Assembly: GCA_043823085.1 (NCBI GenBank) | Contig: JBDRBE010000004.1 | Span: 133,510-197,509 of the forward strand | Direction: 5' to 3' | DNA: 64,000 nt | Source of the DNA: Candidatus Levyibacteriota bacterium | Lineage (GTDB): Bacteria > Patescibacteriota > Microgenomatia > Levybacterales > UBA12049 | Part shown: positions 13,625 through 34,990 of the stretch, piece after piece | How positions within the stretch are numbered: position 1 is the first letter of the stretch | How the letters are laid out: every line of letters begins with the position of its first letter | The notes under the pieces: model-generated | The model's database searches: none | What the model was told of the DNA's origin: nothing | What the model saw: only the letters and a program-made list of their open reading frames with translations | Position numbers and translations under genes: made by a program

Positions 13625-14692
13625 ATGAAAAAAATAGATCTTCTCCTTTTGGCAACTGTAGTTTTTTTAACTCTTTTTGGACTTCTAATGATTTATGACG
13701 CCTCTTCATTTATTGCATTTAGAGATTTTGCAGATAAAAATCATTATGTCAAAGATCAGGCGCTTTGGGTAGTTTTAGGTTTTTGCATGCTTTTGTTCTT
13801 TTCCTTTTTTGATTACCGAAGACTTTATAATCTTTCAATACCTCTTTTAATAGTAGCGATTATTTTTTTATCTCTTGTTTTTGTTCCGGGTGTTGGTATT
13901 CAGGTTCTTGGAGCTAGACGTTGGATAGATGCAGGAGTTTTTGTTATTCAGCCTGCAGAATTTATTAAACTTTCTTTGGCTGTTTATCTTTCGGCCTGGT
14001 TCTCTCGTAAAGAGAAGGGGAGATCTTTTGCGTTCTTTCTCTTGCTTGGCTTGGTAATGGTTCTTGTGATGCTTGAGCCTGATCTTGGTACTGCTTCTAT
14101 TATCTTTCTGGAAGCGGTAATTATTTATTTTTTATCCGGAGCAAATATTCTTTATTTTATTGGAATGGCGCCAATTGTTGCCATAGGATTATTTTTGTTA
14201 ATTAAAGTAGAATCGTATAGGGCGCAGAGGCTTGCGGCTTTTTTGAATATCAATCAATCACTTCAAAACTCTTCGTACCACGTAAAGCAAATTCTAATTG
14301 CTCTCGGAATGGGAGGACTGACAGGTGTGGGACTAGGTAATTCTTTGCAAAAATATGCGTATCTTCCGGAGAATACGACTGATTCTATTTTTGCTATTAT
14401 TGCCGAAGAGATAGGTTTTATTGGCGCAACGATTTTAATAGTTCTTTTGGCTGTTGTAATTTGGCGCGGGTTTTATATTGCGCTTAATAGTAAAGATCCT
14501 TTCGGAAGACTTCTTGCCGGGGGTATTACGTCCTTTTTGGCGATACAAATGATTCTTAATCTTGGCTCCCAAACTGCTCTTTTTCCTTTAACAGGTATTC
14601 CTCTTCCATTTATTTCCTACGGCGGTTCATCCTTAGTGGTTGATTTATTATCAGTTGGAATACTTCTTAATATTTCAAAAAATAAAATATAA
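13625..14692 (+). CDS. ftsW: SEDS-family peptidoglycan glycosyltransferase FtsW
   Basis: MIYDASS N-terminal region, 10-TM SEDS topology, positioned between mraY and murG. Confidence 0.85.
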   Translation: MKKIDLLLLATVVFLTLFGLLMIYDASSFIAFRDFADKNHYVKDQALWVVLGFCMLLFFSFFDYRRLYNLSIPLLIVAIIFLSLVFVPGVGIQVLGARRWIDAGVFVIQPAEFIKLSLAVYLSAWFSRKEKGRSFAFFLLLGLVMVLVMLEPDLGTASIIFLEAVIIYFLSGANILYFIGMAPIVAIGLFLLIKVESYRAQRLAAFLNINQSLQNSSYHVKQILIALGMGGLTGVGLGNSLQKYAYLPENTTDSIFAIIAEEIGFIGATILIVLLAVVIWRGFYIALNSKDPFGRLLAGGITSFLAIQMILNLGSQTALFPLTGIPLPFISYGGSSLVVDLLSVGILLNISKNKI

Positions 14693-14695
14693 AAT

Positions 14696-15799
14696 ATGAA
14701 AGCAGTTTTTACCGGAGGTCATTTGTCCCCGCTGTTAGCGGTTTTGGACGTTATGCCAAAGGATATTGACCTTTTGGTTATTGGAAGAAAATATGCGCTT
14801 GAAGGCGATAAGGTTCTTTCTTTGGAATATCAAACGTTAAATAAAGAGAAAGTTCGTTTTGAAAATATCACAGCCGCAAGACTGCAAAGAAAATTTACAA
14901 GACATACTCTTGCTGCGCTTTTTAAATTTCCATTAGGCTTTGTTCAGTCACTGTTGATTTTGTTAAAATTTAAACCGGAGGTTGTGTTATCGTTTGGCGG
15001 ATATGTTTCTCTTCCGGTAACATTGGCAAGTTTCGTTTTAGGAATTCCCGTTGTAATACACGAACAAACTTTGGAAGCAGGACTATCCAATAGAATCAGT
15101 TCCTTTTTTGCCAAAAAGATATGCATATCTTGGGAAACATCAAGAAAATTTTTTCCCAAATCAAAAGTTGTAATGACGGGAAACCCCGTACGAGAATTTT
15201 CAATTTTCAATTTTAAATTTTCAATTTCGGATGAGAAAATTCCATTAGTTTATGTTACGGGTGGAAGTTCAGGGTCTCATGCAATAAATCTTTTGATTGA
15301 GGGTTGTCTTGAAAAATTATTAGTCAATTGTAAAATTATTCACCAAACCGGCGGGGCAAAAGAATATAACGATTTGGAGCGTCTGAAGAAAATTAAAGAT
15401 AGCCTGAATCAAAAATTTCAAAAGAGGTATTTTCTTGCGAAGTTTATTGAGCCATGCGATGTCGGCTCAATTGTTAATGCAAGCGATCTTGTTGTATCAA
15501 GATCCGGCATAAGTACTATTACTGAACTTTTATTTTTTGCAAAACCTTCTCTTTTGATACCGCTTCCTTTTTCACAAAATAACGAGCAGAAAAAAAATGC
15601 TCTTCTTTTGCAAAATCTGGGTTTAGGAGAAATTATTGATCAAGAAAAAACTTCTTGCGATTTGTTATATGATAAAATGATAGAAATGTTGAATAACATC
15701 GAAAAATATAAAAAATCAAGAGAAGTTGTAAAAACATTAATAAAAAAAGATGCGGCGCAAAAATTAATTGAGGTATGTTATGCGCAAAAGAAAAATTAA
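14696..15799 (+). CDS. murG: Undecaprenyldiphospho-muramoylpentapeptide beta-N-acetylglucosaminyltransferase
   Basis: FTGGHLSPLLAV N-terminal G-rich motif and a GT28 fold. It contains the (TTTTCAA)4 insertion that encodes [10 protein letters not shown]. Confidence 0.85.
   Translation: MKAVFTGGHLSPLLAVLDVMPKDIDLLVIGRKYALEGDKVLSLEYQTLNKEKVRFENITAARLQRKFTRHTLAALFKFPLGFVQSLLILLKFKPEVVLSFGGYVSLPVTLASFVLGIPVVIHEQTLEAGLSNRISSFFAKKICISWETSRKFFPKSKVVMTGNPVREFSIFNFKFSISDEKIPLVYVTGGSSGSHAINLLIEGCLEKLLVNCKIIHQTGGAKEYNDLERLKKIKDSLNQKFQKRYFLAKFIEPCDVGSIVNASDLVVSRSGISTITELLFFAKPSLLIPLPFSQNNEQKKNALLLQNLGLGEIIDQEKTSCDLLYDKMIEMLNNIEKYKKSREVVKTLIKKDAAQKLIEVCYAQKKN
15197..15224. repeat. Heptanucleotide tandem array ttttcaa-ttttcaa-ttttaaa-ttttcaa (28 nt) inside murG
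   Basis: Read directly from the sequence. It translates to [10 protein letters not shown] within MurG. Confidence 0.9.
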
Positions 15800-16187
15800 A
15801 AGAAAAATATTTTTTATATGGTTTATTTTGTTATTAATTCTTTTTTGTTTGGCAATAACAATATTAATTTTGTATAAAAATTTGAATTTAATATCAGTTC
15901 CTTCAGCAGTAAATAAACTCGAAGATTCTAAAGATGTGCAATTAACAAAAAATCTGGAGCAAATTTTAGCCAAAAATAATATTAAATTTGATTTAATAAA
16001 GCTTGCTTCGCAATCTTCAGTTTTAGTTATTTTATTAAGCGGCGAAGAGATAATTTTCTCCAAAGTTAAGCCTTTGGAAGCTCAAGTTTCCTCTTTGCAA
16101 TTTATACTTTCTAGGCTTACAATAGAAGGTAAACGGTTTTCGCGATTAGATTTTAGATTTGAAAAACCGGTAATTTCTTTAAAGTAA
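15768..16187 (+). CDS. Small membrane-anchored protein, possibly an FtsQ/DivIB-like division protein
   Basis: Basic N-terminus followed by one TM helix. It sits in the ftsQ position between murG and ftsA, but is only 139 aa. Confidence 0.4.
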   Translation: MRYVMRKRKIKRKIFFIWFILLLILFCLAITILILYKNLNLISVPSAVNKLEDSKDVQLTKNLEQILAKNNIKFDLIKLASQSSVLVILLSGEEIIFSKVKPLEAQVSSLQFILSRLTIEGKRFSRLDFRFEKPVISLK

Positions 16188-16190
16188 GTT

Positions 16191-17501
16191 ATGAGCGAGG
16201 GAAAAATTGTTGTCGGAATAGATATAGGAACCTCAAAAATTGTCACTGTAATTGCCAAGGTTGACGATTCTGTAAACGTACTTGGAGTTTCGGAAGTAAA
16301 AGCGCAAGGCATTAAAAAGGGTCAAATCGTTGATATTGAGGAAGCTGTTTTATCAATCAACAGTTCTCTTGAATCTGCCGAAAGAATGGCAGGATATTCT
16401 GTTTCTCATGTTATTACTTCAATTGGCGGAGATCATGTTGAAAGCCAAAATTCAAAAGGAGTAGTTGCAGTTTCCAATCCTGACGGCGAGATTATTAAGA
16501 ATGATTTAACTAGGGTTATTGATGCAGCTAAGGCAATTTCTCTTCCTTCAAGCCGCGAGATTATTCATGTTTTGCCGCGAACCTACGCGGTTGATGGACA
16601 GCAAGGAATTAAAGACCCAATTGGAATGACAGGAGTTAGACTTGAGGTCGATACCCATTTGGTTACTGCTTCTTCAACATCAATTCGCAATATCGAAAAG
16701 GCAATGTCAGAAGTTGGAGTTGATATTGATGGTATTGTTTTCAATGGTTATGCAAGTAGTCTTTCTGCACTTTCGGAAACGGAAAAAGAGCTTGGCGTGG
16801 TTTTGGTTGATATGGGCGCTGGGACAACAGATATTTGTATTTATACAGAGGGATCCTTGTCATATTCATCTGTTCTATCAATAGGGGCCAGGCACATAAC
16901 CAATGATTTGGCAATTGGACTTAGAATTTCTTTGGAATCGGCAGAAAAAATAAAACTTTACCTTTCAAAAACTCCGGAAAAAACAAAACTTGAACCAAAC
17001 GATTTTGAAAAAGAAGAAGTGAAACCTTTACAAAGAAACTTCATGGGAAAGAATGACGAGCTTGATTTAAGTGCGTTAAACCTTCCCGAAGATTTAGGCT
17101 CGGTTTCTAAAAAAACTTTAATTGATGGAATTATCAGACCGAGACTTAACGAAATATTTACCATGGTTGGACTTGAAATTAAAAAAAGCGGATTTGCCGC
17201 ATCTACACCGGCAGGTCTGGTTGTAACAGGAGGGGGAGCAAGAACAATAGGCATTAATGATGCGACAAAAAGAATGCTTGCCATGCCAATTAGAATTGGC
17301 TATCCGCAGGAATTAAAAGGAATAATCGATGAAGTGCAAGACTCTCCATTTTCAACAGTTATTGGTTTGGCCATATATGGTTCAAAAGTTGAAACGTCTA
17401 CCGGTTTACCTTTTGGTTTTTCTTTTCCCCAAGCTCCTTTTTTAAAATTTGGAAAGTTTTCCAATAAAATTATTGATTTGATAAAATCATTTATTCCATA
17501 A
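16191..17501 (+). CDS. ftsA: Cell division protein FtsA
   Basis: VVGIDIGTSKI actin-fold phosphate-1 motif. 436 aa, immediately upstream of ftsZ. Confidence 0.9.
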   Translation: MSEGKIVVGIDIGTSKIVTVIAKVDDSVNVLGVSEVKAQGIKKGQIVDIEEAVLSINSSLESAERMAGYSVSHVITSIGGDHVESQNSKGVVAVSNPDGEIIKNDLTRVIDAAKAISLPSSREIIHVLPRTYAVDGQQGIKDPIGMTGVRLEVDTHLVTASSTSIRNIEKAMSEVGVDIDGIVFNGYASSLSALSETEKELGVVLVDMGAGTTDICIYTEGSLSYSSVLSIGARHITNDLAIGLRISLESAEKIKLYLSKTPEKTKLEPNDFEKEEVKPLQRNFMGKNDELDLSALNLPEDLGSVSKKTLIDGIIRPRLNEIFTMVGLEIKKSGFAASTPAGLVVTGGGARTIGINDATKRMLAMPIRIGYPQELKGIIDEVQDSPFSTVIGLAIYGSKVETSTGLPFGFSFPQAPFLKFGKFSNKIIDLIKSFIP

Positions 17502-17559
17502 ACTTCACTCTTGCAAAATCATTTTTTATCTGTTAGGATTTAGCTAATTAATTTGCCTT

Positions 17560-18654
17560 ATGCTAATTAAACCTCAAACAGCAAACTTCGCAAAGATTAG
17601 AGTGATTGGTATTGGTGGAGCTGGAAATAATGGTCTCAATTCGATGATTTCTCAAAGCCAAATTCAGGGTGTTGATTTTATTGGTGTAAATACAGATGCG
17701 CAAGCACTTTTAATGTGCCAGTCCGCGACAAAAATTCAAATCGGAGAAAATTTAACTAAGGGTCTTGGTTCTGGCGGCGATCCGGAAATCGGAAGGCAAG
17801 CCGCAGAGGAGTCGGTTGAAAAAATAAAAGACATACTGGAGGGTTCTGACATGGTTTTTTTAGCTGCCGGAATGGGAGGAGGAACAGGAACAGGAGCGTC
17901 TCCTATTATTGCCAAAATTGCCAAGGATGTGGGAGCGTTGACAATCGCGGTTGTAACCAAACCTTTTGCCTTTGAAGGGACACGAAGAATTGTAACCGGA
18001 GAAGACGGGGTAGAAAATCTTCGCGACAAAGTTGATACACTTATTGTTATTCCAAACCAAAGGATTTTAGAAGTAGTTGACAGGAAACTTTCGCTTTTAG
18101 AAGCTTTTAAAGTTGCAGATTCGGTTTTATCCCAAGGTGTTCAGGGAATATCTGATTTGATTACTACTCCCGGTCTTATTAATGTTGATTTTGCCGATGT
18201 TAAAACAATTATGAACAATGCAGGTTCTGCGTTAATGGGAATTGGAACAGGTGTTGGTGAAAATAGGGCGCAGACTGCAGCTAGAACTGCAATTGCCTCT
18301 CCGCTTTTGGAAATTTCTATGGACGGTGCAAGGGGAGTTCTTTTCAACATTATCGGCGGACCGGATTTGACAATGAGCGAAGTTGACGAAGCGGCAAAAA
18401 TTATTGCTTCATCTGCAGATCCGGATGCAAATATTATTTTTGGTGCGACAATAGATGAAACAATGCATGATCAAATGAAAATTACTGTTATTGCTACAGG
18501 TTTTGATCAGACAAAACAAAGATTAAAGGAATTTGTTGCTCCGCAGGTTGAAAAAACGGATGATCAAAATATTCCAAGCCCGGAGGAGGCGCCGGCAGAA
18601 GAAGAAGATAAAGACATCTGGGACATCCCCGCATTTTTGAGGAATAGGAATTAA
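17560..18654 (+). CDS. ftsZ: Cell division protein FtsZ
   Basis: GIGGAGNN and GGGTGTG tubulin signatures. Confidence 0.95.
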
Positions 18655-18715
18655 GCCTCACTTTGTCATTCGAACAATATCTTCCAAGATTGTTTTGTTG
18701 TGGTAAAATGATGGT

Positions 18716-19192
18716 ATGGTTGCGGATTTAAATAAGTTGGCCAGAGAAATTGTTGAGAAGAATCAGTATATGACGATTGGTTCTGCTAATAAAGCTGGCG
18801 AGGTTTGGGCATCGGTTGTCGCATATGTTTACGATGAAAACTATAATTTTTATTTTGTTTCGATGCCAAATTCAAAACATTGTTCAAATTTTAAAGAAAA
18901 CAGTGAAGTGGTTATAGCCATTTTTGATTCTCATCAGGCTTGGGGAGAAGGTATAGGACTACAAATAGAGGGAGAAATTTTGGAATTAAAATTAATTGAA
19001 GCTCCAAAGGCAATCAGAGCTTATTATAAACGAAATTATCCTTACGGAAAAATAACCGACGCTTTTGGTAAAGGACTTAAAAATCTCTTGAATAAAAATC
19101 TCTACAAACTTTACAAATTTATGCCAATAAAATTTTGGATGAATAACCCAAATTCCGACATAGACGAAAGAGTAGAAATTAAATTGCTTTAA
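18716..19192 (+). CDS. Pyridoxamine 5'-phosphate oxidase-like FMN-binding protein
   Basis: Split-barrel PNPOx-like profile (YMTIGS..GEVWASVV..YFVS). 158 aa. Confidence 0.5.
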   Translation: MVADLNKLAREIVEKNQYMTIGSANKAGEVWASVVAYVYDENYNFYFVSMPNSKHCSNFKENSEVVIAIFDSHQAWGEGIGLQIEGEILELKLIEAPKAIRAYYKRNYPYGKITDAFGKGLKNLLNKNLYKLYKFMPIKFWMNNPNSDIDERVEIKLL

Positions 19193-19286
19193 TTTTAGAC
19201 TGACAAATTAATTTCTTCGAGGATTGTTCTTGAACGGGTATTAAGTTCTCTTGAATAAAAAGCCGCTATCCGCTACAATTTAAACA

Positions 19287-22112
19287 ATGTTTAAATCATT
19301 TAAACCTGTTTCTCCGAAAGTTGATTTTGTAAAACAAGAGGAAGAAATTCTAAAATTCTGGAAAGAAAATAAAATTTTTGAAAAATCCGTTGAGTCCCGG
19401 CCGGAGAATAAGCCCTGGATTTTTTTAGACGGGCCGCCTTTTATTACCGGCCTTCCGCATTACGGGACTTTACTCTCCAGTATTCCAAAAGATTTATTTC
19501 CAAGATTTAAAACAATGCAAGGATATAGAGTCCGCCGTGTTTGGGGATGGGATTGCCATGGTTTGCCTGCCGAAAATAAAGTTGAAGAAAAGCTTGGCAT
19601 AAAAAGAAAAAAAGATATAGAAGAAAAAGTCGGAGTCAAAAAGTTTATTAATGAATGTAAATTATATGTTAAAAATGTTTCCAAAGACTGGGAATGGTAT
19701 GTTGATCGCATCGGAAGATGGGCAGATTTTGAAAATGCCTACAAAACCATGGACATTTCCTATATGGAGTCGGTGATGTGGGTTTTTAAGCAGATGTACG
19801 ATAAAGGGTTAGTTTATAAGGGGCTTCGTGTTTCGCTTTTTTGCCCTCATTGTTCAACTCCAATTTCCAATTTCGAAGTTGCCATGGATGCCGATAATTA
19901 TAAGGATTTAACAGAACCGACTGCGGTTTATAAATACCGGTTAAAAGCTGAGAAAAATACTTATTTACTGGCTTGGTCAACTACTCCTTGGAATAAATTA
20001 GTTACTTCGTCTTTAGCAGTTAAACCCGATTTAACTTATGTTAAGGTTTGCCAGGGAAAAGAAAATTATATTTTGGCAAAGTCTACCGTTAAAATGCTTG
20101 AAGAGAAACCTTACAAGATTCTGGAGGAATTTAAAGGTAGTGAGTTAGTTGGGAAGGAGTTTATTCCTCCTTATGATTTTTACAAAATTGATCCGGGCAA
20201 AAAGGCATTTATTGTAATAGGCGCTGATTTTGTGACTGAGGAGGAAGGAACAGGTGTGGTTACCCTTGCTCCTTATGGTGAAGAAGATTTGGAAGTAATG
20301 CAAAAGGAAAACATTCAAATAGTGTTGCATGTTGATGAGGAAGGGATTGTAAAGGACTTTGTGCCGAAATTTGGGGGAATGTATTATCTTAAGGCTGATA
20401 AATTAGTGCTTGAGGATTTAAAAGAGCGGGGAGTAGTGTACAGATTAATAGAGCATACCCATAGCGTGCCTCATTGCTGGAGATGCGAAACAAGGCTTTT
20501 TTACGCTCCGCAAAATGCATGGTATGTAAATATCCAGACTTTAAAATCGCAGCTTAAAAAAACCAATGAAACAATAAATTGGTTCCCAAAACATTTTAAA
20601 TACGGCCGTTTCCTAAAAAGCATGGAGCAGGCGCCTGACTGGTGTATTTCGCGAAGTAGGTATTGGGGTTCGCCGGTACCTGTTTGGGAGTGTTTTGGAT
20701 GCGGCCAAAATTTTGTTCCGGACTCAATAAAGGAATTGGAAGAGGCAAGTGGTAAAAAGATTAATGATTTACATAAACCGGAAATTGATGAAATAACAGT
20801 AAAGTGTAAAAAATGCGGAAAAGTTAGTCATCGTGTACCTGAAGTTTTGGATTCATGGATAGAGGCCGGTTCTGCGCCATATGCCGAGCGTCATTTTCCC
20901 TTTGTAAAAGGTCTAAAGCTTGAAGATTTTTTTCCGCCGGATTTTATTGTTGAATATACAGGACAAATAAGAGCTTGGTTTTATGTTCTTCATGTCATTG
21001 GGACGGCAATTTTTAATTCGAAAGCTTTTAAAAATGTTTCGGTGACAGGCGTAATTCTTGGAACAGACGGCAGGAAAATGAGCAAAAACTATAATAATTA
21101 TCCTGACCCAAAACAAATGCTGCAAAAATACGGAGGAGATGCGCTGCGTTTGTATTTAATGGGAAGTCCGGTAATGAAAGGCGAAGATATTTTAATATCA
21201 GAGGATCATTACCGTGAACAAGTGAAAGGAACAATGCTTATTCTTTGGAACATTTATAATTTTTTCGTGATGAACGCAAGTGTGGACAAATGGTCAGTTA
21301 CAAGTTGCAAGTTACAAGTTACAAGCCAGAATGTTTTAGATAAATGGATAAATGCAAGACTAAATGAAACAATACGGGAAGTAACTAATTCGCTTGAGAA
21401 TTTTGATACTGTTTCTGCGATCAAATTTAGCGAAGTATTTATTTCTGATTTATCTCTTTGGTATGTTCGCAGATCCCGCAGCAGGGTTGGCATGGCGGCT
21501 TCCAACAAAGAAGATAAAAATGCGTGTTACCAGACTTTTTACAGAGTTTTAGTAACTTTTTCAAAATTAATTGCGCCGATTACGCCTTTTATTGCCGAAG
21601 AATTTTTTAGAAACTTAACCGGCGAAGAATCAGTTCATTTAACAGAATGGCCGGAAAACAGTTTAAGCATCGATAAAAAACTTATCGAAGAGATGGCTAT
21701 GGTTCGTAAAATTGTGGAAATGGGTCATTCAACAAGAAAAAGCAATAATATTAAAGTTCGGCAACCCCTTTCGAAATTTTCAATTTTTAATTTAAAATTT
21801 TTAATTGATGAAGGCTTAGTTAATCTTGTTAAGGATGAATTAAATGTTAAAGAAGTTATTCAGAAAGAGGGGAAGGGTGATTTGCTAGTCGAGTTTGACA
21901 CAAAATTGACAAAGGAATTGATTGACGAGGGACAAATGAGGGATATTGTCAGAAAAATCCAGGAAGAGAGAAAAAGACTCGAAACAAAACCGGATGAAAA
22001 AGTTAATGTGGTTTTGCAAGACTGGCCAAAAGATTTTGAAGAAGAAATTAAAAAAAGGGCGCAAGCGAACAAACTTTCCAAGGGTGAAAAATTTGAGGTT
22101 AAAAGGGAATGA
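19287..22112 (+). CDS. ileS: Isoleucyl-tRNA synthetase, archaeal/eukaryotic type
   Basis: DGPPFITGLPHYGT (degenerate HIGH), GWDCHGLPAE, KMSKNYNNYPDP (KMSKS). It carries two in-frame heptamer-array insertions. Confidence 0.8.
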   Translation: MFKSFKPVSPKVDFVKQEEEILKFWKENKIFEKSVESRPENKPWIFLDGPPFITGLPHYGTLLSSIPKDLFPRFKTMQGYRVRRVWGWDCHGLPAENKVEEKLGIKRKKDIEEKVGVKKFINECKLYVKNVSKDWEWYVDRIGRWADFENAYKTMDISYMESVMWVFKQMYDKGLVYKGLRVSLFCPHCSTPISNFEVAMDADNYKDLTEPTAVYKYRLKAEKNTYLLAWSTTPWNKLVTSSLAVKPDLTYVKVCQGKENYILAKSTVKMLEEKPYKILEEFKGSELVGKEFIPPYDFYKIDPGKKAFIVIGADFVTEEEGTGVVTLAPYGEEDLEVMQKENIQIVLHVDEEGIVKDFVPKFGGMYYLKADKLVLEDLKERGVVYRLIEHTHSVPHCWRCETRLFYAPQNAWYVNIQTLKSQLKKTNETINWFPKHFKYGRFLKSMEQAPDWCISRSRYWGSPVPVWECFGCGQNFVPDSIKELEEASGKKINDLHKPEIDEITVKCKKCGKVSHRVPEVLDSWIEAGSAPYAERHFPFVKGLKLEDFFPPDFIVEYTGQIRAWFYVLHVIGTAIFNSKAFKNVSVTGVILGTDGRKMSKNYNNYPDPKQMLQKYGGDALRLYLMGSPVMKGEDILISEDHYREQVKGTMLILWNIYNFFVMNASVDKWSVTSCKLQVTSQNVLDKWINARLNETIREVTNSLENFDTVSAIKFSEVFISDLSLWYVRRSRSRVGMAASNKEDKNACYQTFYRVLVTFSKLIAPITPFIAEEFFRNLTGEESVHLTEWPENSLSIDKKLIEEMAMVRKIVEMGHSTRKSNNIKVRQPLSKFSIFNLKFLIDEGLVNLVKDELNVKEVIQKEGKGDLLVEFDTKLTKELIDEGQMRDIVRKIQEERKRLETKPDEKVNVVLQDWPKDFEEEIKKRAQANKLSKGEKFEVKRE
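21297..21324. repeat. Heptanucleotide array gttacaa-gttgcaa-gttacaa-gttacaa (28 nt) in ileS
   Basis: Read directly from the sequence. It encodes SVTSCKLQVTSQ. Confidence 0.9.
21775..21809. repeat. Degenerate AATTTTY heptamer array (aattttc-aattttt-aatttaa-aattttt-aattgat) in ileS
   Basis: Read directly from the sequence. It encodes KFSIFNLKFLI. Confidence 0.8.
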
Positions 22113-23188
22113 AAAGAGGGGGTATTTTAAATATCGAGCTGGGGTTATTAATTCCTGTTTTTGTTCTTGTCTCCTTAGGTCTTGCCACGCTTTTTTCCAT
22201 CAACGTTTCGTATTTTAAAAGTCAACTCGTCTATATTATCCTTTCGTTTTTAGTCTTTATATTTTTTGCCAATGTTAATTATCGGATTTTTCGTTTATAT
22301 TACGTTCAAATTTATATTATTTCTATAATTGCATTTATAATTGTTCTTTTGTTGGGTTTTGAAACTCGGGGGACAATGCGATGGGTTGATATTTTTGGTT
22401 TTCGGATTCAATTCTCCGAAGTGCTAAAGCCATTTTTGGCTGTTTCATTTTCCTCAATGTTGGCCAATAGCAGAAAATCGTTCAAATCTCTTCTTTTGAG
22501 TATTGCTTATCTTATCCCAATTGTTTTTTTAGTTTATATTCAGCCGGATCTTGGTAACGCTTTAATTTATTTTTTTGTAGCACTTTTAACTTTAGTTGTT
22601 ACAGGCTTTCCGCTTATTTGGTTTGGTCTGGGATTTTTTTTCATGGCAGGTTTGTCTCCTTTATTTTGGAGAATGATGCATGGCTATCAAAGAGAAAGAA
22701 TACTTACGTTTATCAATCCAAACAAAGATATTTTGGGAACATCCTATAACGCAATTCAATCGATTGTAGCGGTTGGCTCGGGAATGATTCTTGGGAGAGG
22801 GCTTGGCGAGGGTACACAGTCGGGACTTCGTTTTTTGCCCGAACAGTATACGGATTTTATCTTTGCGACAATTTCTGAAAGCTTTGGATTTTTAGGAGGG
22901 CTTTTAATAATTATTTCGTTTGCTTTCCTTCTCTATAAAATATATTCGATATATAGAGACTCCGAGGATAAATTTTGTAAAATTTTTAGTGCCTGCGTCT
23001 TTTTCTTAATTCTTGTGCAGCTTTTTATTAATATCGGCATGAATATAGGGATTGTTCCTATTGTTGGTATTACTTTGCCCTTTGTTTCGTATGGGGGAAG
23101 CTCGCTTTTATCAAATTTCATTTTACTTGGATTTCTTTCTTCAATTGGCCGTGATATTAAAGAGCAGGAAACACTAGAAATTAAGTGA
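22109..23188 (+). CDS. rodA: SEDS-family protein RodA/FtsW paralogue
   Basis: Polytopic membrane protein of the FtsW/RodA/SpoVE family, with the PFVSYGGSS C-terminal motif shared with the ftsW at 13625. Confidence 0.8.
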   Translation: MKRGGILNIELGLLIPVFVLVSLGLATLFSINVSYFKSQLVYIILSFLVFIFFANVNYRIFRLYYVQIYIISIIAFIIVLLLGFETRGTMRWVDIFGFRIQFSEVLKPFLAVSFSSMLANSRKSFKSLLLSIAYLIPIVFLVYIQPDLGNALIYFFVALLTLVVTGFPLIWFGLGFFFMAGLSPLFWRMMHGYQRERILTFINPNKDILGTSYNAIQSIVAVGSGMILGRGLGEGTQSGLRFLPEQYTDFIFATISESFGFLGGLLIIISFAFLLYKIYSIYRDSEDKFCKIFSACVFFLILVQLFINIGMNIGIVPIVGITLPFVSYGGSSLLSNFILLGFLSSIGRDIKEQETLEIK

Positions 23189-23221
23189 TGAGTTTGATAT
23201 AATTGCTTTTTACAAAAGCAT

Positions 23222-23542
23222 ATGAAGTACGCGGTTATAAAAACAGGCGGAAAGCAGTATAAAGTTGAAGAAGGAGATGTGTTGGAGGTGGAGAGGCTCC
23301 AAATTTTGCCAAATAAGGATTTTAATTTTGAAGAAGTATTGCTTTATGTGTCGGACGATTCTTTTAAAATAGGTAAGCCAAAAGCGGAAGGGGTTAAAGT
23401 TTTGGCAAAGCTCTTGGAACATATAAAAGGAGAGAAAATTAGAGTTTCTAAATTTAAATCAAAAGTAAAATATCGAAGAACTACAGGCCACAGGCAATCG
23501 CTTAGTAAAGTTAAAATTGAATCGATCGGGCTGCATAAATGA
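23222..23542 (+). CDS. rplU: 50S ribosomal protein L21
   Basis: MKYAVIKTGGKQYKVEEGDVL. Confidence 0.95.
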   Translation: MKYAVIKTGGKQYKVEEGDVLEVERLQILPNKDFNFEEVLLYVSDDSFKIGKPKAEGVKVLAKLLEHIKGEKIRVSKFKSKVKYRRTTGHRQSLSKVKIESIGLHK

Positions 23543-23557
23543 TATAATTTGACTGTC

Positions 23558-23602
23558 TTGACTTCTGTGAAAAGTGCAGATAAAATACATTTAGTTTTCA
23601 CA
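23558..23602 (+). promoter_or_regulatory. Sigma70-like promoter (ttgact, 17 nt spacer, taaaat) embedded in an 8-bp inverted repeat (tgtgaaaa/ttttcaca) upstream of rpmA
   Basis: -35 at 23558-23563, -10 at 23581-23586. Inverted-repeat arms at 23566-23573 and 23595-23602. Confidence 0.4.
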
Positions 23603-23610
23603 AAAATACT

Positions 23611-23862
23611 ATGGCACATACAAAAGCACAAGGATCAGTAAAAGGAAATAGGGATTCAGTTGCCAAACGTTTAGGGGTGAAGCTTTTTGGTGGACAAAAG
23701 GCAGAAAACGGCAATATTATTGTCAGGCAAAAAGGAACAAGAATAAGCGCTGGAAAAAATGTTTTGATGGGGAAAGACTTTACCCTTTACGCAGTAGCAT
23801 CCGGTTATGTAAATTTTAAGACAAGATTTGGTAAAAAAATTGTGGAGGTTATTAATGGATAA
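23611..23862 (+). CDS. rpmA: 50S ribosomal protein L27
   Basis: MAHTKAQGSVKGNRDS..GVKLFGGQ. Confidence 0.95.
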   Translation: MAHTKAQGSVKGNRDSVAKRLGVKLFGGQKAENGNIIVRQKGTRISAGKNVLMGKDFTLYAVASGYVNFKTRFGKKIVEVING

Positions 23863-24676
23863 TAATGATCAACAGATAAGCGAAATAGAAATATCACAGC
23901 TTCAAGCAAATCCTTTACAACCCCGTGGGATTATTTCTCCGGAATCAATAGCGGAACTGATGGATTCAATTCGTGAACACGGAATTTTAGAGCCATTGGT
24001 TATTGCAAAAACCCCTGCCGGATTTCAGATAATTGCAGGTGAAAGAAGATGGAGAGCCGCCAAAGCTCTTGGGATGGCAAAAGTTCCGGCAGTCGTAAGA
24101 GAGACAACTCCGCAAGGAATGCTGGAAATGTCAATTGTCGAAAACGTTCAGCGGGAAGATCTTAATCCGATAGAAAGAGCACTTGCCTACAAGAGATTAA
24201 TAGATGAATTTGGTCTTGGAACAAATGAGGTTGCAAAGAGAGTTGGAAAGAGTGCACCGGCGGTCTCAAATACTATTCGGCTTCTATCGTTACCGGATGC
24301 GATTAAAGATGCGTTGGTCGCAGGTGTAATCAGCGAGGGACATGTTCGTCCTTTAATTTCCTTGGAAGATCACAAACTTATGCTTGATCTTTTCAAAAAA
24401 ATATTGCGTGAAAACAGCACTGTCAGACAAACAGAAGAGTTGGCAAGAGAAATTAAATCCGACATACAAAAGAAAGAGCCGCGCACAAAACAGGATAGGC
24501 TGTGGGTGCCGGAAATGGATGAAATGGCAAAGTCAATAGAAAAGAAATTTAATCTTAATAAAGTTACGGTTTATCAGTCAAGAAGTCTGGCAAGACTTGT
24601 TTTGGTAGTTAGAGGAGAAGTGGATATAACAACGCCAAAAATAAAAGAAATTTGCAATTTGCTTGAAGGTGTCTAA
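23855..24676 (+). CDS. parB: Chromosome partitioning protein ParB/Spo0J
   Basis: LEPLVIAKTP..GFQIIAGERRWRAAKALG. The ATG at 23855 (MDNNDQQ) is the likely start; the track ORF begins at 23828 inside rpmA. Confidence 0.85.
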   Translation: MDNNDQQISEIEISQLQANPLQPRGIISPESIAELMDSIREHGILEPLVIAKTPAGFQIIAGERRWRAAKALGMAKVPAVVRETTPQGMLEMSIVENVQREDLNPIERALAYKRLIDEFGLGTNEVAKRVGKSAPAVSNTIRLLSLPDAIKDALVAGVISEGHVRPLISLEDHKLMLDLFKKILRENSTVRQTEELAREIKSDIQKKEPRTKQDRLWVPEMDEMAKSIEKKFNLNKVTVYQSRSLARLVLVVRGEVDITTPKIKEICNLLEGV

Positions 24677-25323
24677 TAAGGATTAGTGATTCTTCTTATT
24701 CTATCAAGCGGCCAATAGGCAAATAGAGAACGCCCGATAACTTCATTTTTTTTGACAAATCCCCATTCTCTGGAGTCCGAACTATAAGGACGGTTGTCGC
24801 CCATAACAAAATACATGTTTTCAGGCACACTGAGCGGTATTCCCTCTTTAAGGAATGAAGAGGGATAAGTTTTAACGTCGCTATTTAAATACATGTGCTG
24901 GTCAAGTTTTTCATTATTGATATAAATATTGTTGTCTTTGAGAAGTATGGTGTCACCCGCAACTGCGATGATTCTTTTAATAAAATCTTTTTCTTCGTCC
25001 AACGGATATCTAAAGACAATTACATCTCCTTTTTTTAGCTCGTCAAACCGCAAGGAAATAAGGTCGGTCAAGATATATTCTTTGTCGTGAAAATTTGGAA
25101 ACATTGAATCACCGTTAACCTGAAATGGCCGAAAAAAGAAAATATAAATAAAAACAAAAAATGAGGCAAAAAGAAGTAAAGTTTGAGCGGTGTCAATAAA
25201 GAATGAAAATATTTTCCGTAAGATAAACATAAAATATATTGTGGCAGAGAGCTTAAATTTTGTCAACGATAATAATCTGTGGTAAGATTGAGGTGAAGTG
25301 TGGGTACTTAGCTCCCCGTACAA
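24673..25323 (-). CDS. lepB: Signal peptidase I
   Basis: GDSMFPNF (catalytic Ser box) and VMGDNRPYSSDSREWG box E. Confidence 0.85.
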   Translation of the reverse strand: MYGELSTHTSPQSYHRLLSLTKFKLSATIYFMFILRKIFSFFIDTAQTLLLFASFFVFIYIFFFRPFQVNGDSMFPNFHDKEYILTDLISLRFDELKKGDVIVFRYPLDEEKDFIKRIIAVAGDTILLKDNNIYINNEKLDQHMYLNSDVKTYPSSFLKEGIPLSVPENMYFVMGDNRPYSSDSREWGFVKKNEVIGRSLFAYWPLDRIRRITNPY

Positions 25324-25395
25324 TTCTTACTTGCTCCCGAGGGTTGCATCCTCGCGTCGCAAAGGCGGATATACGGGCAAGTAGTGGTTTTATAT

Positions 25396-25467
25396 GGATC
25401 CGTAGCTCAGTGGTAGAGCGTTCGGTTCACATCCGAAAGGTCAGAGGTTCGATACCTCTCGGATCCA
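25396..25467 (+). tRNA. tRNA-Val (anticodon CAC)
   Basis: 72-nt manual cloverleaf fold: acceptor ggatccg/cggatcc, anticodon loop ttCACat, T-loop ttcgata. No encoded CCA. Confidence 0.85.
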
Positions 25468-25541
25468 CTTTTCGTATTTTGTTCGCATTTTTCTCTTTCC
25501 CGCCATCTTAGCACTCTCTGCATATGTCTGATAATCGAGAT

Positions 25542-26489
25542 TTAATTCACCTTATTCGTCGGTTTTCCTTTGAGGAAATTTTCTATATTTGACGTAAACA
25601 TTTCTTGTCTCATAATTCCTGCCTCTTTTGTAATATATGCCATTGGCGGATAAATAATGCAGTTTTCATATTTTGAAAGATTCTTTAAATCTTTTTGGGA
25701 CATTTCATCGGAATGGTCCAAAACAAAAGTTATATCTTTCTTCTCAAGTCTCTTTACCAATCCTTCAATATTAACCAACTCCATAGGAGCAGTGTTTATA
25801 ATAACAGCTCCCTTTTTTACTTCTTGAAATCTTTTTTTATTAAAGATATTTTCTGTTTCTTTATTTAGGGCAAGATTTATAGATACAAAATCGGATTTGG
25901 AGATAAGTTTGTTAAGTTCCTCGTATCTTATTCCTTTTTTCTCCGCATCTCTCTTTCTATTTCTTGACCAATACCTAACGTCTGCGCCAAGACCAAGAGC
26001 CAGCTCTGCAATTCTTGTTCCAATATGTCCTAGACCAATTACGCCAAAAATTTTATCTTTAATCTCAAAAGCGGAAATACCAGCCTCTGAATAATTGCCT
26101 GTTTTTCCTCTTCTTTTCCCTTCACAAATTCCTTTTACTACTTCAAGGATTGCTGCTAGAACAAATTCCGCGACAGATTCAGTGCTATAACCGGCCAGAT
26201 TACAAACAATGACTTTCTTTTTCTTTGCATATTCGCTGTCAATTTTTCCATATGCAGTTGCAAATACTCCAATATATTTAAGATGCGGAGCTTTATCTAT
26301 ATCTTCTTTTGAAACATTTACTCCAAAGCCAACCAATAGGCAGTCTGTATCTGCTAAATGTTTTTTTATTTCCAGACTGTTTTTAGGGAGAAATACTTTT
26401 TCTTTAGTTAATTTATTTATTCTCTTCCAATAGTTTTGCTCAAGAGATGATTTAGATATTCCAATGAATGTAGCTTTATTAAATTTCAT
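25542..26489 (-). CDS. D-isomer-specific 2-hydroxyacid dehydrogenase (NAD-binding)
   Basis: GVIGLGHIGTRIAELA Rossmann motif with a catalytic His/Glu/Arg pattern. 315 aa. Confidence 0.75.
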   Translation of the reverse strand: MKFNKATFIGISKSSLEQNYWKRINKLTKEKVFLPKNSLEIKKHLADTDCLLVGFGVNVSKEDIDKAPHLKYIGVFATAYGKIDSEYAKKKKVIVCNLAGYSTESVAEFVLAAILEVVKGICEGKRRGKTGNYSEAGISAFEIKDKIFGVIGLGHIGTRIAELALGLGADVRYWSRNRKRDAEKKGIRYEELNKLISKSDFVSINLALNKETENIFNKKRFQEVKKGAVIINTAPMELVNIEGLVKRLEKKDITFVLDHSDEMSQKDLKNLSKYENCIIYPPMAYITKEAGIMRQEMFTSNIENFLKGKPTNKVN

Positions 26490-26598
26490 ATTATTATGAG
26501 TTTGATTATAATATTAATTATTAAGTAATGCAAGCTTAGGCTTCTACGGAATATATTTAGGTTTTATTAATTTTAAATTTAATGGTAGAATTTGAGGA

Positions 26599-27681
26599 AT
26601 GCGGGTTTTATTTTTAACAAGACTTTTTTATCCCCATATCGGCGGAGTTGAAAGACATGTGATGGAGTTGAGTAAGAGGTTGGTTGAAAGAGGAGACGAG
26701 GCATCGGTAATCACAGAGGCAGATTCTCATAATTTTCAATTTTCAATTTTCAATTTTCAATCAAATTCTAATGTAAAAATTTTAAATAAAAAAACACCAG
26801 GCAAGATCGAAATTTATCGGATACCGGTAGGTAAAGATAGCTGGTTTAAGAAGTTTCGGATTTGGCAATGGATGTGGAAACATCGGGAGTTGATTAGTAG
26901 TGCTGACGTTGTCCACTGTCATGATGTATTCTTTTGGTATTTGCCGTTTAGATTCTTGTTTCCGCAAAAGAAAGTTTTTACAACCTTTCATGGTTACGAA
27001 AGCTATCCCATTTCCAAAAAAGCAATAATTGTCCGAAAAATTTCAGAACTTTTATCATTTGGCAATATTTGTATCGGCGATTTTATCAAAAAATGGTACA
27101 AAACAAAAGCGACGTTTGTTTCATATGGCGGCGTCAATGCCAAAAATCAAAAATCAAAAATCAAAAATCAAAGATTAGAAAAAGCAAGAGAGAAGTATTC
27201 CGCTGTTTTCATTGGGCGTTTGGATGAGCAGACAGGAATTTTGACTTATTTAAAGGCGGTTGAATTAATAAAAAAGAAAATTCCTGGTTTTAAATTCACA
27301 GTTATTGGCGAGGGGAGGTTCAAAAATAAAATTCCAAAAGATATTGAGGTTTTAGGATTCCAAGAGAGGGTTGAAGAATATTTCCCAGAATTTAATTTTG
27401 CTTTTGTTTCGCGTTACCTCTCAATTCTTGAGGCAATAGCTGCAAAGCGTCTTGTTTTTGCCCTTTATGATAATCCGGTAAAGCGAGACTATTTAAAAAT
27501 GGCGCCGTTTGCAAAGTTTGTTATTATCTCTAATTCGGAAAAAGAGTTGGCAGAAAAAGTTTTGTTTTTCCTAAAAAATCCGGATAAAGAAAAAGAATTG
27601 GTTGACGATGCTTTTAATTGGGTAAAAAATCAAACATGGGAAAAAGTCCTTCAAACTTACCTAAATCTTTGGAAAAAGTAA
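26599..27681 (+). CDS. Glycosyltransferase family 4 (GT-B)
   Basis: Starts MRVLFLTRLFYPHIGGVERHV, with an E-x7-E-like C-terminal region. It carries two heptamer-array insertions. Confidence 0.75.
   Translation: MRVLFLTRLFYPHIGGVERHVMELSKRLVERGDEASVITEADSHNFQFSIFNFQSNSNVKILNKKTPGKIEIYRIPVGKDSWFKKFRIWQWMWKHRELISSADVVHCHDVFFWYLPFRFLFPQKKVFTTFHGYESYPISKKAIIVRKISELLSFGNICIGDFIKKWYKTKATFVSYGGVNAKNQKSKIKNQRLEKAREKYSAVFIGRLDEQTGILTYLKAVELIKKKIPGFKFTVIGEGRFKNKIPKDIEVLGFQERVEEYFPEFNFAFVSRYLSILEAIAAKRLVFALYDNPVKRDYLKMAPFAKFVIISNSEKELAEKVLFFLKNPDKEKELVDDAFNWVKNQTWEKVLQTYLNLWKK
26734..26761. repeat. (ttttcaa)4 perfect heptamer array inside the GT4 gene
   Basis: Read directly from the sequence. It encodes FQFSIFNFQ. 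Confidence 0.9.
27142..27169. repeat. (aaaaatc)4 perfect heptamer array inside the GT4 gene
   Basis: Read directly from the sequence. It encodes KNQKSKIKNQ. Confidence 0.9.
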
Positions 27682-27716
27682 GCTTCAAATGATATACTTC
27701 AAATATAAAAACAAAC

Positions 27717-28640
27717 ATGAAAGTTTCTTTTGTGGCTACGGTTTTGAATGAGGAGAAGTCAATTGATTATTTCCTTGAATCGCTTTTCAAGCAGTCAGTG
27801 GAGCCGGATGAAATAATCATCGTTGATGCGGAAAGCACCGATGCTACAGCGTCGATAATTTTCAATTTTAAATTTTCAATTTTCAATGAAAAAGTAAAAA
27901 TTATAATAAAAAAAGGGAATAGGGCGGTGGGGAGGAATGAGGCGATAAAAAATGCTACAGGAGAAATTATTGCATGTTCGGACGCCGGATGTGTTTTGGA
28001 TAAAGATTGGTTAAAAAATATCATCGAATCGTTTCAAGACCCAACTATTGATGTAGTTTGCGGATTTTATAAACCAATTACTCACAATATTTTTGAGAGA
28101 TGTTTGGCTACTTACACTTGTGTTATGCCGGACAGAATCGACAGGGAGAATTTCCTTCCATCTTCAAGGTCAGTTGCTTTCAAAAAAAGTGCATGGGAAA
28201 AAGTCAAAGGGTATCCGGAGAATTTAGATACTTGTGAAGATTTAATTTTTGCAAGAAATTTAAAAAAAGCAGGATTAAAATTTAAATTTAATAGAAAGGC
28301 AATAGTTTACTGGCCTCAAAAGAAAAATTTACTTGAAGCATTTAAACAATTTTTTAATTATGCAAAAGGGGACGGTCAGGCAAGACATATACGAATGCAA
28401 ACTCCATTCCTTTTTATCAGATATATTTTAGGTTTTATATTATTATTTTATTCATTAATTTTTAAAATAACATTATTTTATTTTTTAATATTTCTTTTGT
28501 GTTTATATTTTCTTTGGTCAATAAATAAAAGCTTTAAATATATCAAAAACTGGAAGGGATTAATTATTTTACCTGTCTTACAAATGACATCAGATATTGC
28601 AGTAATATCCGGAATGACAGTTGGATTTTTTAAAAAATAA
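27717..28640 (+). CDS. Glycosyltransferase family 2 with a C-terminal TM region
   Basis: Starts [22 protein letters not shown], with a DxD-type GT-A fold. It carries a (ttttcaa)-type insertion. Confidence 0.75.
27848..27875. repeat. Heptamer array ttttcaa-ttttaaa-ttttcaa-ttttcaa inside the GT2 gene
   Basis: Read directly from the sequence. It encodes [10 protein letters not shown]. Confidence 0.9.
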
Positions 28641-29883
28641 TATGGAAAGAAAAATTTTCTTAAATACTTTTTATCAAATTTTTGGAAAAGTTGTTATATC
28701 CTTTTTGGGATTGGTTGGTACATCTTTTTTAACACGTTATCTTGGGCCAATCGGATTCTCCGAATACAGTTTTATTTTCGCCTTTGTTGGATTTGCTTAC
28801 ATTTTTATGGATTTTGGTCTTGGGACTTTACTTACCAGAACCCTTGCCTCTCAAAAAGAAGGGGAGCGATTATTCTCCGAATTTTTTTCGTTAAGAGTAT
28901 TACTCTCGGTTATTGTTTTATTTTTTTCAATGTTAATTGTAATCTTTCTGCCATATACTACAGAAATTAAAATTGGAATTTTTATTGCGTCTTTTTCTAC
29001 GATTTTTATTCTTTTCTCCGGCGTTTTTTGGGGGTTATTTCAGGCGGAAATCAAATTTTCGAAAATGGTAATTCCGCAGATTATAACTTCAGTCTGTTCA
29101 TTCCTTTTGATATCACTTGGCGTAATTTTTCGGGCAAATTTATTTTATTTTTTATTAATTAGCGTAGCGGCGTCACTGGTGGGTTTATTTATTTCATTTT
29201 TATTTAGTAAATATAAAAAGCTCTTTATTTTTAACTTTAAAGTTTTTTGGAGAATTATAATCAAGGCATTGCCTTTCGGAATTGGACTAATAACAAGCGT
29301 TGCATATTTTAAAGTAGACATCCTTATTCTTTCATTTTTTTATAATCCGTCTTTTTATCCGGATGTAGGATTATATTCATTATCTTATAAAGTATTCGAG
29401 GTAGCTGTAATTTTTGGAGGATTATTTTCACAAACACTTTTTCCTCTTTTTTCCAGAATTATAAATTCAAAAGTTTTTTTAATTCACTTCAAAAAATATC
29501 TTTTATATTCATTGTTAATCTCTTTTTCTGCGATTTTGGTTCTTTTGTTCTTTGCGAATTTCTTCATTTCGATTTTGGGGGGAAGTAAATTTTTACAATC
29601 TGCTCAGTCACTGCGAATTTTATCGCTTGCCGCAGGATCTAGCATTTTGGCAGGATTTTTTTCAAGTGTTGCTATAGCCGGCCACAAAGAAGTTTTAATT
29701 TTAAAATTTAGTATTATTGCTCTTATTTTAAATGTTTTTTTAAACTTTGTTTTTATTCCGCAATTTTCTTTTATTGCTGCCAGTTGGACAACTGTTGTGA
29801 CGCAGAGTTTTATCATGACAACAAATATATTCGCTTCCTATTTGGTAATTAAACAACATTTGAGGATGATAAAAGCCCCATGA
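28621..29883 (+). CDS. Polysaccharide biosynthesis flippase (MOP superfamily, Wzx-like)
   Basis: 420 aa, about 12 predicted TM helices, with an N-terminus typical of oligosaccharide flippases. Confidence 0.65.
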
Positions 29884-34865: not shown

Positions 34866-34885
34866 AAAAATTAATATTTCCCCTG

Positions 34886-34957: not shown

Positions 34958-34990
34958 GCGGATAATATCATTGTATTAAATTTGAGGTTT

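Follow-up and report, generated by a model that had tools for sequence, protein, structure and literature searches.

Introduction

Rickettsia palindromic elements (RPEs), of ~100-150 nt, share a family consensus, have hairpin potential and add length to the proteins in which they are translated. The tandem repeats of Borgs reportedly have, within open reading frames (ORFs), units that are multiples of 3 nt, which add length and create disordered protein regions; and the small dispersed repeats of Nostoc studied by Elhai et al. in 2008 are said to be embedded in tandem heptamers outside genes. Heptameric simple sequence repeats (SSRs) are over-represented in many bacteria, and a hypothesis of polymerase slippage and polymerase footprint has been proposed for them (PMC4692102). 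In neuO of Escherichia coli a translated 5' heptanucleotide variable-number tandem repeat, (AAGACTC)n, is present in 3-53 copies, expression requiring that the number of repeats be divisible by 3 (PMC13001214). Here we analyse tandem arrays of 7-nt units, TTTTCAA among them, that are translated in frame within murG, ileS and other genes of a 64 kb stretch of DNA of ~35% GC from Candidatus Levyibacteriota (Patescibacteria, or Candidate Phyla Radiation, CPR). This whole stretch is termed the window, and is numbered from its first letter as position 1. A sequence-only reading of the window had taken the TTTTCAA arrays to be secondary insertions of a short module, comparable to RPEs, in tolerated loops. 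We consider it probable that they are instead heptanucleotide microsatellites, genome- and clade-wide, which are homogenised in place at the DNA level and filtered by translation, and not an inserted mobile element.

Results

TTTTCAA arrays lie in frame in four genes of the window

Tandem Repeats Finder (TRF) detects the TTTTCAA unit, in the rotation AATTTTC, as arrays of ~4.5 copies, or ~31 nt, at four sites within ORFs, all on the plus strand. In murG (ORF 14696-15799) an (AATTTTC)4.7 array (15195-15227; 92% match) encodes a 12-aa peptide in the linker that connects the motifs GNPVR and GGSxG. A degenerate (AATTTTY)4.6 array in ileS (ORF 19287-22112) lies at 21775-21806 (80% match) and encodes KFSIFNLKFLI; a perfect (AATTTTC)4.4 array in a GT4 glycosyltransferase gene (ORF 26599-27681) lies at 26731-26761 (100% match) and encodes NFQFSIFNFQS; and an (AATTTTC)4.4 array in a GT2 glycosyltransferase gene (ORF 27717-28640), at 27857-27887 (91% match), encodes an 11-aa peptide and includes one TTTTAAA unit, a variant that it has in common with the murG array. 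The fifth site, also on the plus strand, is a degenerate TTTTCAA-type array in the gatC-gatA spacer (51245-51279), which abuts the gatA start codon and is antisense to gatCAB transcription.

The identities of the four host proteins as MurG, IleRS, GT4 and GT2 were confirmed. A pattern of two TTTTCAA units with at most one mismatch occurs 12 times in the window against 1.14 expected, a number that none of 100 shuffles reached. That TTTTCAA arrays are present in frame in these four genes is thus borne out, by sequence and by TRF, far above chance; the peptides originally given for them are indeed translations of the intact ORFs, and the original coordinates for GT2 (27848-27875) lie ~10 nt too far to the left.

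The left flanks of the murG array (15170-15200) and the ileS array (21750-21780) are alike, GGAAACCCCGTACGAG against GGCAACCCCTTTCGAA, with GATGA after both. This likeness is probably a coincidence, for the flanks encode motifs conserved in array-free orthologues; ectopic conversion between the two sites may nonetheless have taken place.

An excess specific to period 7 in the window and its relatives

TTTTCAA is one unit of several: TRF and exact runs together reveal ~17 period-7 arrays in the window, made of ~10 different units. Exact period-7 runs number 11 against 0.3 expected and reach 32 nt at the longest, and periods 4-6 and 8-15 give 0-3; the four in-ORF TTTTCAA arrays comprise 4.4-4.7 copies by TRF, at 80-100% match. 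As relatives we used 80 loci, 1.26 Mb in all with one genome per species, obtained from a MurG-profile scan; the informative titles among their records read Levybacteria, Levyibacteriota, Microgenomates or Patescibacteria group, while many binned titles in the third-party annotation (TPA) section differ and are apparently unreliable. (L-labels below denote compared loci or metagenome contigs, and P-labels GT4 orthologues.) The window's MurG stands alone in its cluster at 100% identity, and the closest other MurG is 63-64% identical to it. These 80 loci contain 43 exact period-7 runs, and at most 13 of any other period. In a TRF census of the window plus the 80 loci, counting arrays of at least 3 copies with at least 80% match, period 7 accounts for 74 arrays, period 6 for 21, and periods 5 and 8 for 7 apiece. 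Two thirds of the arrays fall within ORFs of housekeeping genes, where they are in frame. Three features of the heptanucleotide-SSR class are present: 7-nt units in head-to-tail tandem, an excess specific to period 7, and several unrelated units in one genome. The window is ~4 times richer in arrays than the average relative, but was itself chosen for having them. An assembly artefact is unlikely: arrays recur at the same sites, always in intact frames, in metagenome-assembled genomes (MAGs) from numerous separate studies, as well as in one or more records, such as CP066685.1, whose titles give them as chromosomes.

Sites persist while units change

In 120 MurG orthologues, at 53-64% identity, the segment from GNPVR to (I/V)Y(I/V)TGGS is very often periodic at 7 residues. 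The peptides concerned, KYQISNIEYQISN, KFKIQNSKFKI, KFQISNFKFQI, KSQIPNPKSQIPN, RFKIKDLRLKIK and QFSIFNFQFSI, each back-translate to a 7-nt repeat; the heptamers were confirmed in the DNA of the loci, and their units differ between species. Other heptamer units likewise occupy the position of IleS site 1 (AGTTACA in the window) in L004, L021, L030 and L070, and the ileS gene of L023 has a perfect (AATTTTC)4.6 array at what is apparently the same site as window 21775-21806. The inter-domain linker of GT4 is heptamer-coded in most orthologues, giving KNEKLKIKN, KSEKLKVKS, SKFKIQNSKF, NIKYQISNIKY or NGKWQMANGKW. Orthologues that share heptamer-coded peptides at these MurG, IleS and GT4 linker positions are 50-63% identical overall.

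Within the arrays of MurG linkers that bear them, identity at lag 7 is 0.90 (background lag-7 identity, 0.23). Between species the same 33 nt are only 0.59 identical, as against 0.72 for the flanking coding DNA. The difference between 0.90 within arrays and 0.59 between species implies concerted evolution, in which the unit of an array drifts but an active process at the level of the DNA holds its copies uniform.

The linkers of distant MurG proteins (35-51% identity) are 17-21 aa long and essentially non-periodic, two of 46 being weakly periodic, so that arrays at the MurG site are a derived trait of a subclade. The earlier supposition that homologues are without such peptides therefore holds for distant MurG homologues and for the solved MurG and GatB structures, but not for Levybacteria orthologues. 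A peptide shared at the same position by unrelated lineages would have pointed to an ancestral origin; heptamer-coded peptides are found at the same position, but in related lineages. Nor did we see the scattered absence from orthologous sites that is typical of RPEs: MurG, IleS site 1 and the GT4 linker are array-coded across many Levybacteria.

Most arrays replace resident sequence

For 43 in-ORF arrays, length was compared with that of non-periodic orthologues. The differences centre on 0, which is also their mode; 38 of the 43 fall within -7 to +4 aa, and the other five are net inserts of +7 to +18 aa. The MurG linker has a mode of 18 aa whether arrays are present or not, and that of the window is 2 aa shorter than its counterpart in P. 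aeruginosa MurG (3s2u). The GT2 array (27857-27887) aligns without gaps to the segment of 6yv7 past the DxSxD motif, the ileS array at 21775-21806 adds no length relative to array-free orthologues, and GatB site 1 (49407-49439) takes the place of a similarly long segment of T. maritima GatB (3al0_B), at +1 aa. Net inserts of ~14 aa are seen at GT4 site 1 (26731-26761), a hypervariable loop, relative to most of 119 orthologues, and at GatB site 2 (49108-49158), relative to 3al0_B. Being length-neutral with respect to both array-free orthologues and solved structures, the arrays are mostly replacements rather than insertions, and usually overwrite resident sequence.

Alignment with orthologues and structures, a check that the sequence-only reading had proposed, maps the arrays mostly to linkers and loops. 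In an AlphaFold model of MurG (mean pLDDT, the model's confidence score, 87) the array linker, residues 161-183, is coil and scores 67-79; in IleRS there is one array on either side of the anticodon-binding domain, that at 21775-21806 being at its C-terminal edge; and GT4 site 2 (27141-27172) is between two Rossmann-type domains. The GT2a array, unlike most, replaces a helix. Of the picture of secondary insertions in tolerated loops there survive the derived character of the arrays and the mostly tolerant segments, but for the most part not the insertion. A seed followed by one 21-nt in-frame expansion, considered as the source of the 4.5-unit size, was rejected, since it predicts +7 aa where the observed centre is 0. 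MurG linkers of 25-27 aa with three peptide repeats do exist, and may be examples of 21-nt steps.

The loop at GT4 site 1 shows a further kind of variation. Aligned to window 26700-26800, orthologues P0141, P0155, P0177, P0226 and P0228 hold VIPAKAGIQ...IPDQVRNDK, MLKQVQHD and SLRDGATSLDSSLLAMT, which we take to be translations of widespread GC-rich repeat elements. Repeat DNA of several sorts seems to accumulate in this hypervariable loop.

Stop codons filter units and orientation

Three units make 21 nt and are read in all frames, so an array within a gene must be cyclically free of TAA, TAG and TGA. Among units with six A/T bases this leaves 42 of 128 rotation classes, the A(n)T(m)C units included; these, such as TTTTCAA and CAAAAAT, predominate because only C can join a T-run to an A-run without creating TAA or TGA. 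Their antisense forms are excluded, TTGAAAA containing TGA and ATTTTTG likewise. The consensus units of 57 genic arrays are stop-free in the sense orientation only in 28 cases, in both orientations in 12 and in antisense only in five; the remaining 12 have stops in both orientations, but their actual, imperfect copies avoid them. Among intergenic arrays 13 of 24 have stops in both orientations. Density follows suit, at 29.9 arrays per 100 kb of non-coding DNA against 4.55 of coding DNA, a 6.6-fold difference.

The filter was also visible in a metagenome sample of (TTTTCAA)4, which matched at least 120 contigs of 20-70% GC; the figures given for this sample, here and below, hold among the matches listed. 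There, open frames of 100 aa or more contain 85 (TTTTCAA)4 arrays in sense and none in antisense. The sense-only orientation in ORFs thus arises because antisense repeats carry stops: it is a survival filter, not the mark of an insertion mechanism for which it might be taken. The statement that all copies are in sense is correct inside ORFs, but the fifth copy of the window, at 51245-51279, is antisense to gatC and gatA.

No gene is frameshifted at any array in the 81 sequences (the window and the 80 loci, one genome per species). The genic arrays examined all lie in intact frames, and the intergenic arrays occupy genuine spacers rather than split genes. In three species an intergenic (AAGAATT)4 array, with stops in all frames, runs right up to the ATG of orthologous ORFs of ~445 aa, at the expected position of the ribosome-binding site (L005:2749-2777, L018:1549-1584 and L019:2905-2933).

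Arrays in metagenome and viral contigs

In-ORF (TTTTCAA) arrays of low-GC metagenome contigs are of 30-36 nt in 52 cases of 53, which is consistent with the original argument that gain or loss of a unit would shift the frame, so that copy number is fixed. The contigs of the whole sample also hold 134 period-7 arrays of other units against 20 arrays at period 6 and 25 at period 8; these other-unit arrays have the same size mode, and whatever the GC class their density is 17-23 per 100 kb. In viral contigs array lengths have a long tail. TTTTCAA is not a universally special heptamer: TTTTACA makes 35 and TTTTAAC 22 stretches in the viral contigs, as against 12 for TTTTCAA.

The GC-rich contigs contain inverted pairs of the form (TTGAAAA)4-spacer-(TTTTCAA)4, several per contig, which are apparently intergenic (ORF calls being unreliable at 60-68% GC). 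Pairs of (TTGAAAA)4.3 and (TTTTCAA)4.3 separated by a spacer of ~20-40 nt, in contigs of 63-68% GC, are at L090:5565-5663, L101:2637-2714, L114:945-1045, L127:2227-2311, and L129:8671-8750 and 10745-10838. To judge by eye, the L090 pair is flanked by genes of pilB and pilT type, and L129 also has an inverted pair of another heptamer (TGAGCGA/TCATCGT). Two other metagenome contigs of 55-60% GC, L171 and L175, are packed with very long heptamer arrays whose units are many and varied (among them GTTATGG x40, AATTGTG x18, ATTTACG x12 and GAGTTAG x14), reminiscent of the short tandemly repeated repetitive (STRR) arrays of cyanobacteria.

Structure, flanks and GC-rich palindromes

The arrays have no RNA or DNA structure of their own: the predicted RNA fold of the GT4 array is 0 kcal/mol, and that of the murG array has z = -0.25. 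Neither a target duplication nor a flank common to different arrays was seen at the TTTTCAA sites of the window or in the metagenome arrays. Comparison with an RPE-like module therefore fails on several counts, the arrays showing no hairpin, no common flanks, no target duplication, many units, persistent positions and mostly no added length.

GC-only perfect palindromes, CCGCCAGCTGGCGG and CGCCGGCCGGCG, do occur in frame inside MurG-linker heptamer arrays (L001:1825-1890, L007:6252-6311 and L018:10499-10564), where they add at least 4 aa (PPAGG, SPAGG). The palindrome 12-mer is present also in window gatB (48836-48850), with no added length and in ungapped alignment with T. maritima GatB, and at L026:15984 the same 12-mer is the core of a terminator hairpin. 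A very small palindromic element, GC-rich and making a 7-bp target duplication, had been suggested by CGCCAGCTGGCG lying between ATTTGAT repeats in gatB and by the split MurG arrays of L001, L007 and L018. Of 114 GC-rich islands, 7.0% have direct repeats of at least 7 nt on their flanks (controls, 3.7%) and 1.8% have repeats of at least 8 nt (controls, 1.5%); such an element is rejected as a general cause.

Other heptamer arrays in the window

The remaining arrays of the window illustrate the range of units. On the plus strand, a perfect (CAAAAAT)4.6 array in the GT4 inter-domain linker (27141-27172) encodes AKNQKSKIKNQR; an (AGTTACA)4.3 array of ileS (21296-21325), between the catalytic and anticodon-binding domains, encodes SVTSCKLQVTS; and a (CAAAGTG)3.6 array in a second GT2 gene (ORF 29880-30731), at 30028-30052, encodes SKRKVQSAK directly past the DDGSxD motif. 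On the minus strand, read in the sense of the gene, gatB (ORF 48399-49766) contains a (CAAAAAT)4.7 array (49407-49439) encoding KIKNQKLKIKN, and a degenerate period-7/14 array (49108-49158) encoding LNLKNQTSKIKTTNQNSN; CAAAAAT is in sense in both GT4 and gatB. murT, also on the minus strand, contains (CCAAATT)4.4 in its C-terminal domain (54203-54233), encoding EFQIPNSKFQM, and a degenerate (AAAAATT)3.9 array (54163-54189) encoding KIKNFKLKI. Others lie at or beyond the ends of genes: a perfect (GCGTATG)3.1 array (54008-54029) in the 52-nt spacer from the murT stop to the start of a gatD-like GATase_3 gene, (AAAATAT)3.6 across the ftsW stop and murG start (14677-14701), (TTATGAA)3.1 (8038-8059) spanning the spacer after the unannotated ORF 6268-8034 and the first codons of the hydrolase ORF at 8047, and an (AAATTTA)-type period-7 array at the gatC stop codon (51317-51346).

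The MurT_C domain is 143 aa long against 110 positions in the Pfam profile, so part of it is extra sequence. The murT gene, otherwise AT-rich, also has two in-frame GC-rich stretches, at 54397-54448 and 55187-55210; one encodes GGPARHVSRALRGVAGRKN, and the other is a hairpin (RNA fold z = -2.5) with a T-run after it. Elsewhere, gene orientation changes from mostly plus to mostly minus near 34 kb of the window, where cumulative GC skew flattens; a tRNA-Thr is at 34885-34957 on the minus strand, and the other tRNAs of the window are at 25396, 58992 and 60243. The strand switch at ~34000-36000 may be replication-related.

Discussion

What was observed is periodicity, its excess over chance, persistence of position with turnover of units, neutrality of length, the stop filter and enrichment in non-coding DNA; the molecular mechanism, and the reasons for 7 nt and for ~31 nt, we infer. 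A DNA process with a 7-nt register, acting anywhere in the genome, would create arrays of ~4.5 units (~30-33 nt) and keep them uniform. Any unit would survive in non-coding spacers; in genes, the survivors would be those that are stop-free in three frames, keep the downstream frame and lie in a loosely constrained segment, such as a linker, a surface loop or a variable helix. From length-neutral replacement, and from the turnover of units within arrays that stay uniform, we infer that homogenisation is mainly length-preserving: transient out-of-register pairing would be followed by copying or repair and by return to register, with steps of 21 nt occurring more rarely. Were an essential gene to gain or lose a single unit, the result would be lethal and the change eliminated; no such change was seen.

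Certain of the results sit uneasily with this reading. Simple slippage predicts a monotonic fall in copy number, but perfect arrays are bimodal in size: they cluster at 29-36 nt, and arrays of 3 to 3.9 units are scarce. The lengths of metagenome (TTTTCAA) arrays peak at 30-32 nt, with none of 28-29 nt, and 68 of 111 start with exactly AA before the first TTTTCAA, a phase that the four in-ORF copies of the window have too. Contigs of 60-68% GC hold several identical AT-rich (TTTTCAA)4 arrays each, often as inverted pairs, for which a purely local origin is a poor explanation; and the TTTTCAA unit at five sites in 64 kb, with the TTTTAAA variant in two arrays, hints at exchange between sites. 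Thus neither the size mode of ~30-33 nt nor the multi-copy arrays of GC-rich genomes is explained by simple local slippage, and both keep alive the ideas of a module or of a novel process.

A discrete module of ~31 nt, AA(TTTTCAA)4T(T), that spread by transposition-like insertion or ectopic patch conversion, in the manner of RPEs or miniature inverted-repeat transposable elements (MITEs), and landed in murG, ileS, GT4 and GT2, would fit the likeness of the five window copies in length and phase, the variant common to murG and GT2, the canonical phase and length across metagenomes, and the multiple identical copies of high-GC contigs, whose inverted pairs resemble terminal repeats. We nonetheless judge it improbable, since most arrays add no length, have no secondary structure and display neither an across-array conserved flank nor a target duplication; at least ten units occur in one genome and turn over at orthologous sites, and in viral contigs TTTTCAA does not stand out from permuted units, with 12 stretches where these have 35, 22 and 9. 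No link to a transposase turned up, although no systematic search for one was made. Size quantised at ~31 nt and positions that persist over long divergence could reflect selection of the periodicity at the DNA or RNA level, as an unstructured spacer, a translation-enhancing leader or heptad protein-binding sites, with coding merely tolerating it; intergenic arrays often abut start codons ((AAGAATT)4-ATG in L005, L018 and L019, and the gatA leader), and the arrays are structure-free as RNA. To such a cis-element we give little credence: units differ so widely in one genome that no single binding protein fits, the arrays lie in ORFs of unrelated function at no fixed distance from gene starts, no common flanking motif was found, and between-species identity is below that of the flanks.

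Two further explanations appeal to the genes and proteins themselves. The in-ORF unit, of a length not divisible by 3, has the architecture of neuO, and two of the four hosts are glycosyltransferases adjoining a gene of the Polysacc_synt family (polysaccharide biosynthesis protein), a class that is typically phase-variable; the arrays might then be contingency loci, in which slipped-strand gain or loss of one 7-nt unit switches a gene off or on. Very little speaks for this once it is seen that essential single-copy genes (murG, ileS, gatB, murT) have arrays too, which are thus not confined to accessory or surface genes, that units number only 4-5, against 3-53 and most commonly 20 in neuO (PMC13001214), that in-ORF lengths are so tightly fixed (52 of 53 in the metagenome sample), and that genic arrays examined are all in intact frames and intergenic ones are not split genes. 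Alternatively, an amphipathic peptide with a period of seven residues (xFxIxNx) might be favoured in the proteins, as a linker or beta-hairpin, and the periodicity of the DNA would be a by-product; positions are conserved across orthologues, and in GatB the array-coded LKIKNQKLKIKNIRI stands in place of a T. maritima GatB segment of similar length. Exact 7-nt identity of units read in different frames, however, cannot arise from selection on amino acids, the arrays are 6.6 times denser in non-coding DNA, their peptides are chemically diverse (KSKVKSQ, NGKWQMA, SHQPRAT), and the array region of MurG is predicted, with reduced confidence, to be coil; we regard protein selection as highly unlikely. 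Microsatellites homogenised in place thus remain the reading that we favour. Tentatively, it is possible to go further and to suppose an undescribed mutational process, in many lineages (Levybacteria and organisms of 30-68% GC), that rewrites ~30-33 nt in place, without change of length, into ~4.5 heptamers and then keeps the copies identical while the unit drifts. If so, it would continuously overwrite intergenic spacers and the dispensable parts of essential proteins, and would explain the heptamer excess of bacteria.

The consequences of such arrays concern both proteins and DNA. MurG, IleRS, GatB and MurT, essential and highly conserved enzymes, tolerate segments dictated by a DNA repeat process and not by protein function, and the arrays thus serve as natural markers of dispensable linkers and loops. 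They offer a clean case of concerted evolution at the 30-nt scale in coding DNA. Length-neutral replacement and quantised size are not predicted by standard models of slippage, and make the question of the bacterial 7-nt excess testable by comparative genomics. Annotators and structure predictors should recognise odd low-complexity peptides of CPR proteomes, such as FSIFNFQ and KIKNQKS, as repeat-derived.

Our literature searches turned up no account of heptamer arrays lying in frame within CPR genes. The heptanucleotide-SSR class is known; what is new is a form of it that lies in frame, is length-neutral, keeps its positions and comes in a quantised size. RPEs resemble the arrays in being repeated DNA translated in frame in conserved proteins, at mostly structurally tolerant positions, but the arrays are of ~31 nt, without structure, variable in unit and mostly without added length, and the features of RPE membership that we tested are absent. 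With the tandem repeats of Borgs they share fast-evolving in-ORF tandem DNA that gives low-complexity peptides; here, by contrast, a 7-nt unit passes through all three reading frames and usually takes the place of sequence already there. The embedded repeats of Nostoc find a counterpart in the GC-rich palindromes CCGCCAGCTGGCGG and CGCCGGCCGGCG within MurG and GT4 linker arrays of Levybacteria orthologues, but belong to another phylum and lie outside genes, whereas the Levybacteria inserts are in frame, with no general link between GC islands and direct repeats found. neuO is alike in that a 7-nt repeat within an ORF is translated and frame is kept only if copy number fits modulo 3; it is, however, the 5' end of one accessory phage gene, subject to on/off slippage, whereas the Levybacteria arrays have 4-5 copies and occupy internal linkers in many genes, essential ones included. 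The STRR heptamers of cyanobacteria and the GGGAATC-type repeats of Xanthomonas and Nostoc share 7-nt tandems, a period-7 excess, several units per genome, and conserved positions at which sequence and length vary between relatives, sometimes in inverted pairs (PMC4692102). The published cases are described as intergenic and often G-rich or long, whereas the Levybacteria arrays are two-thirds within ORFs, AT-rich, of ~4.5 units and mostly length-neutral.

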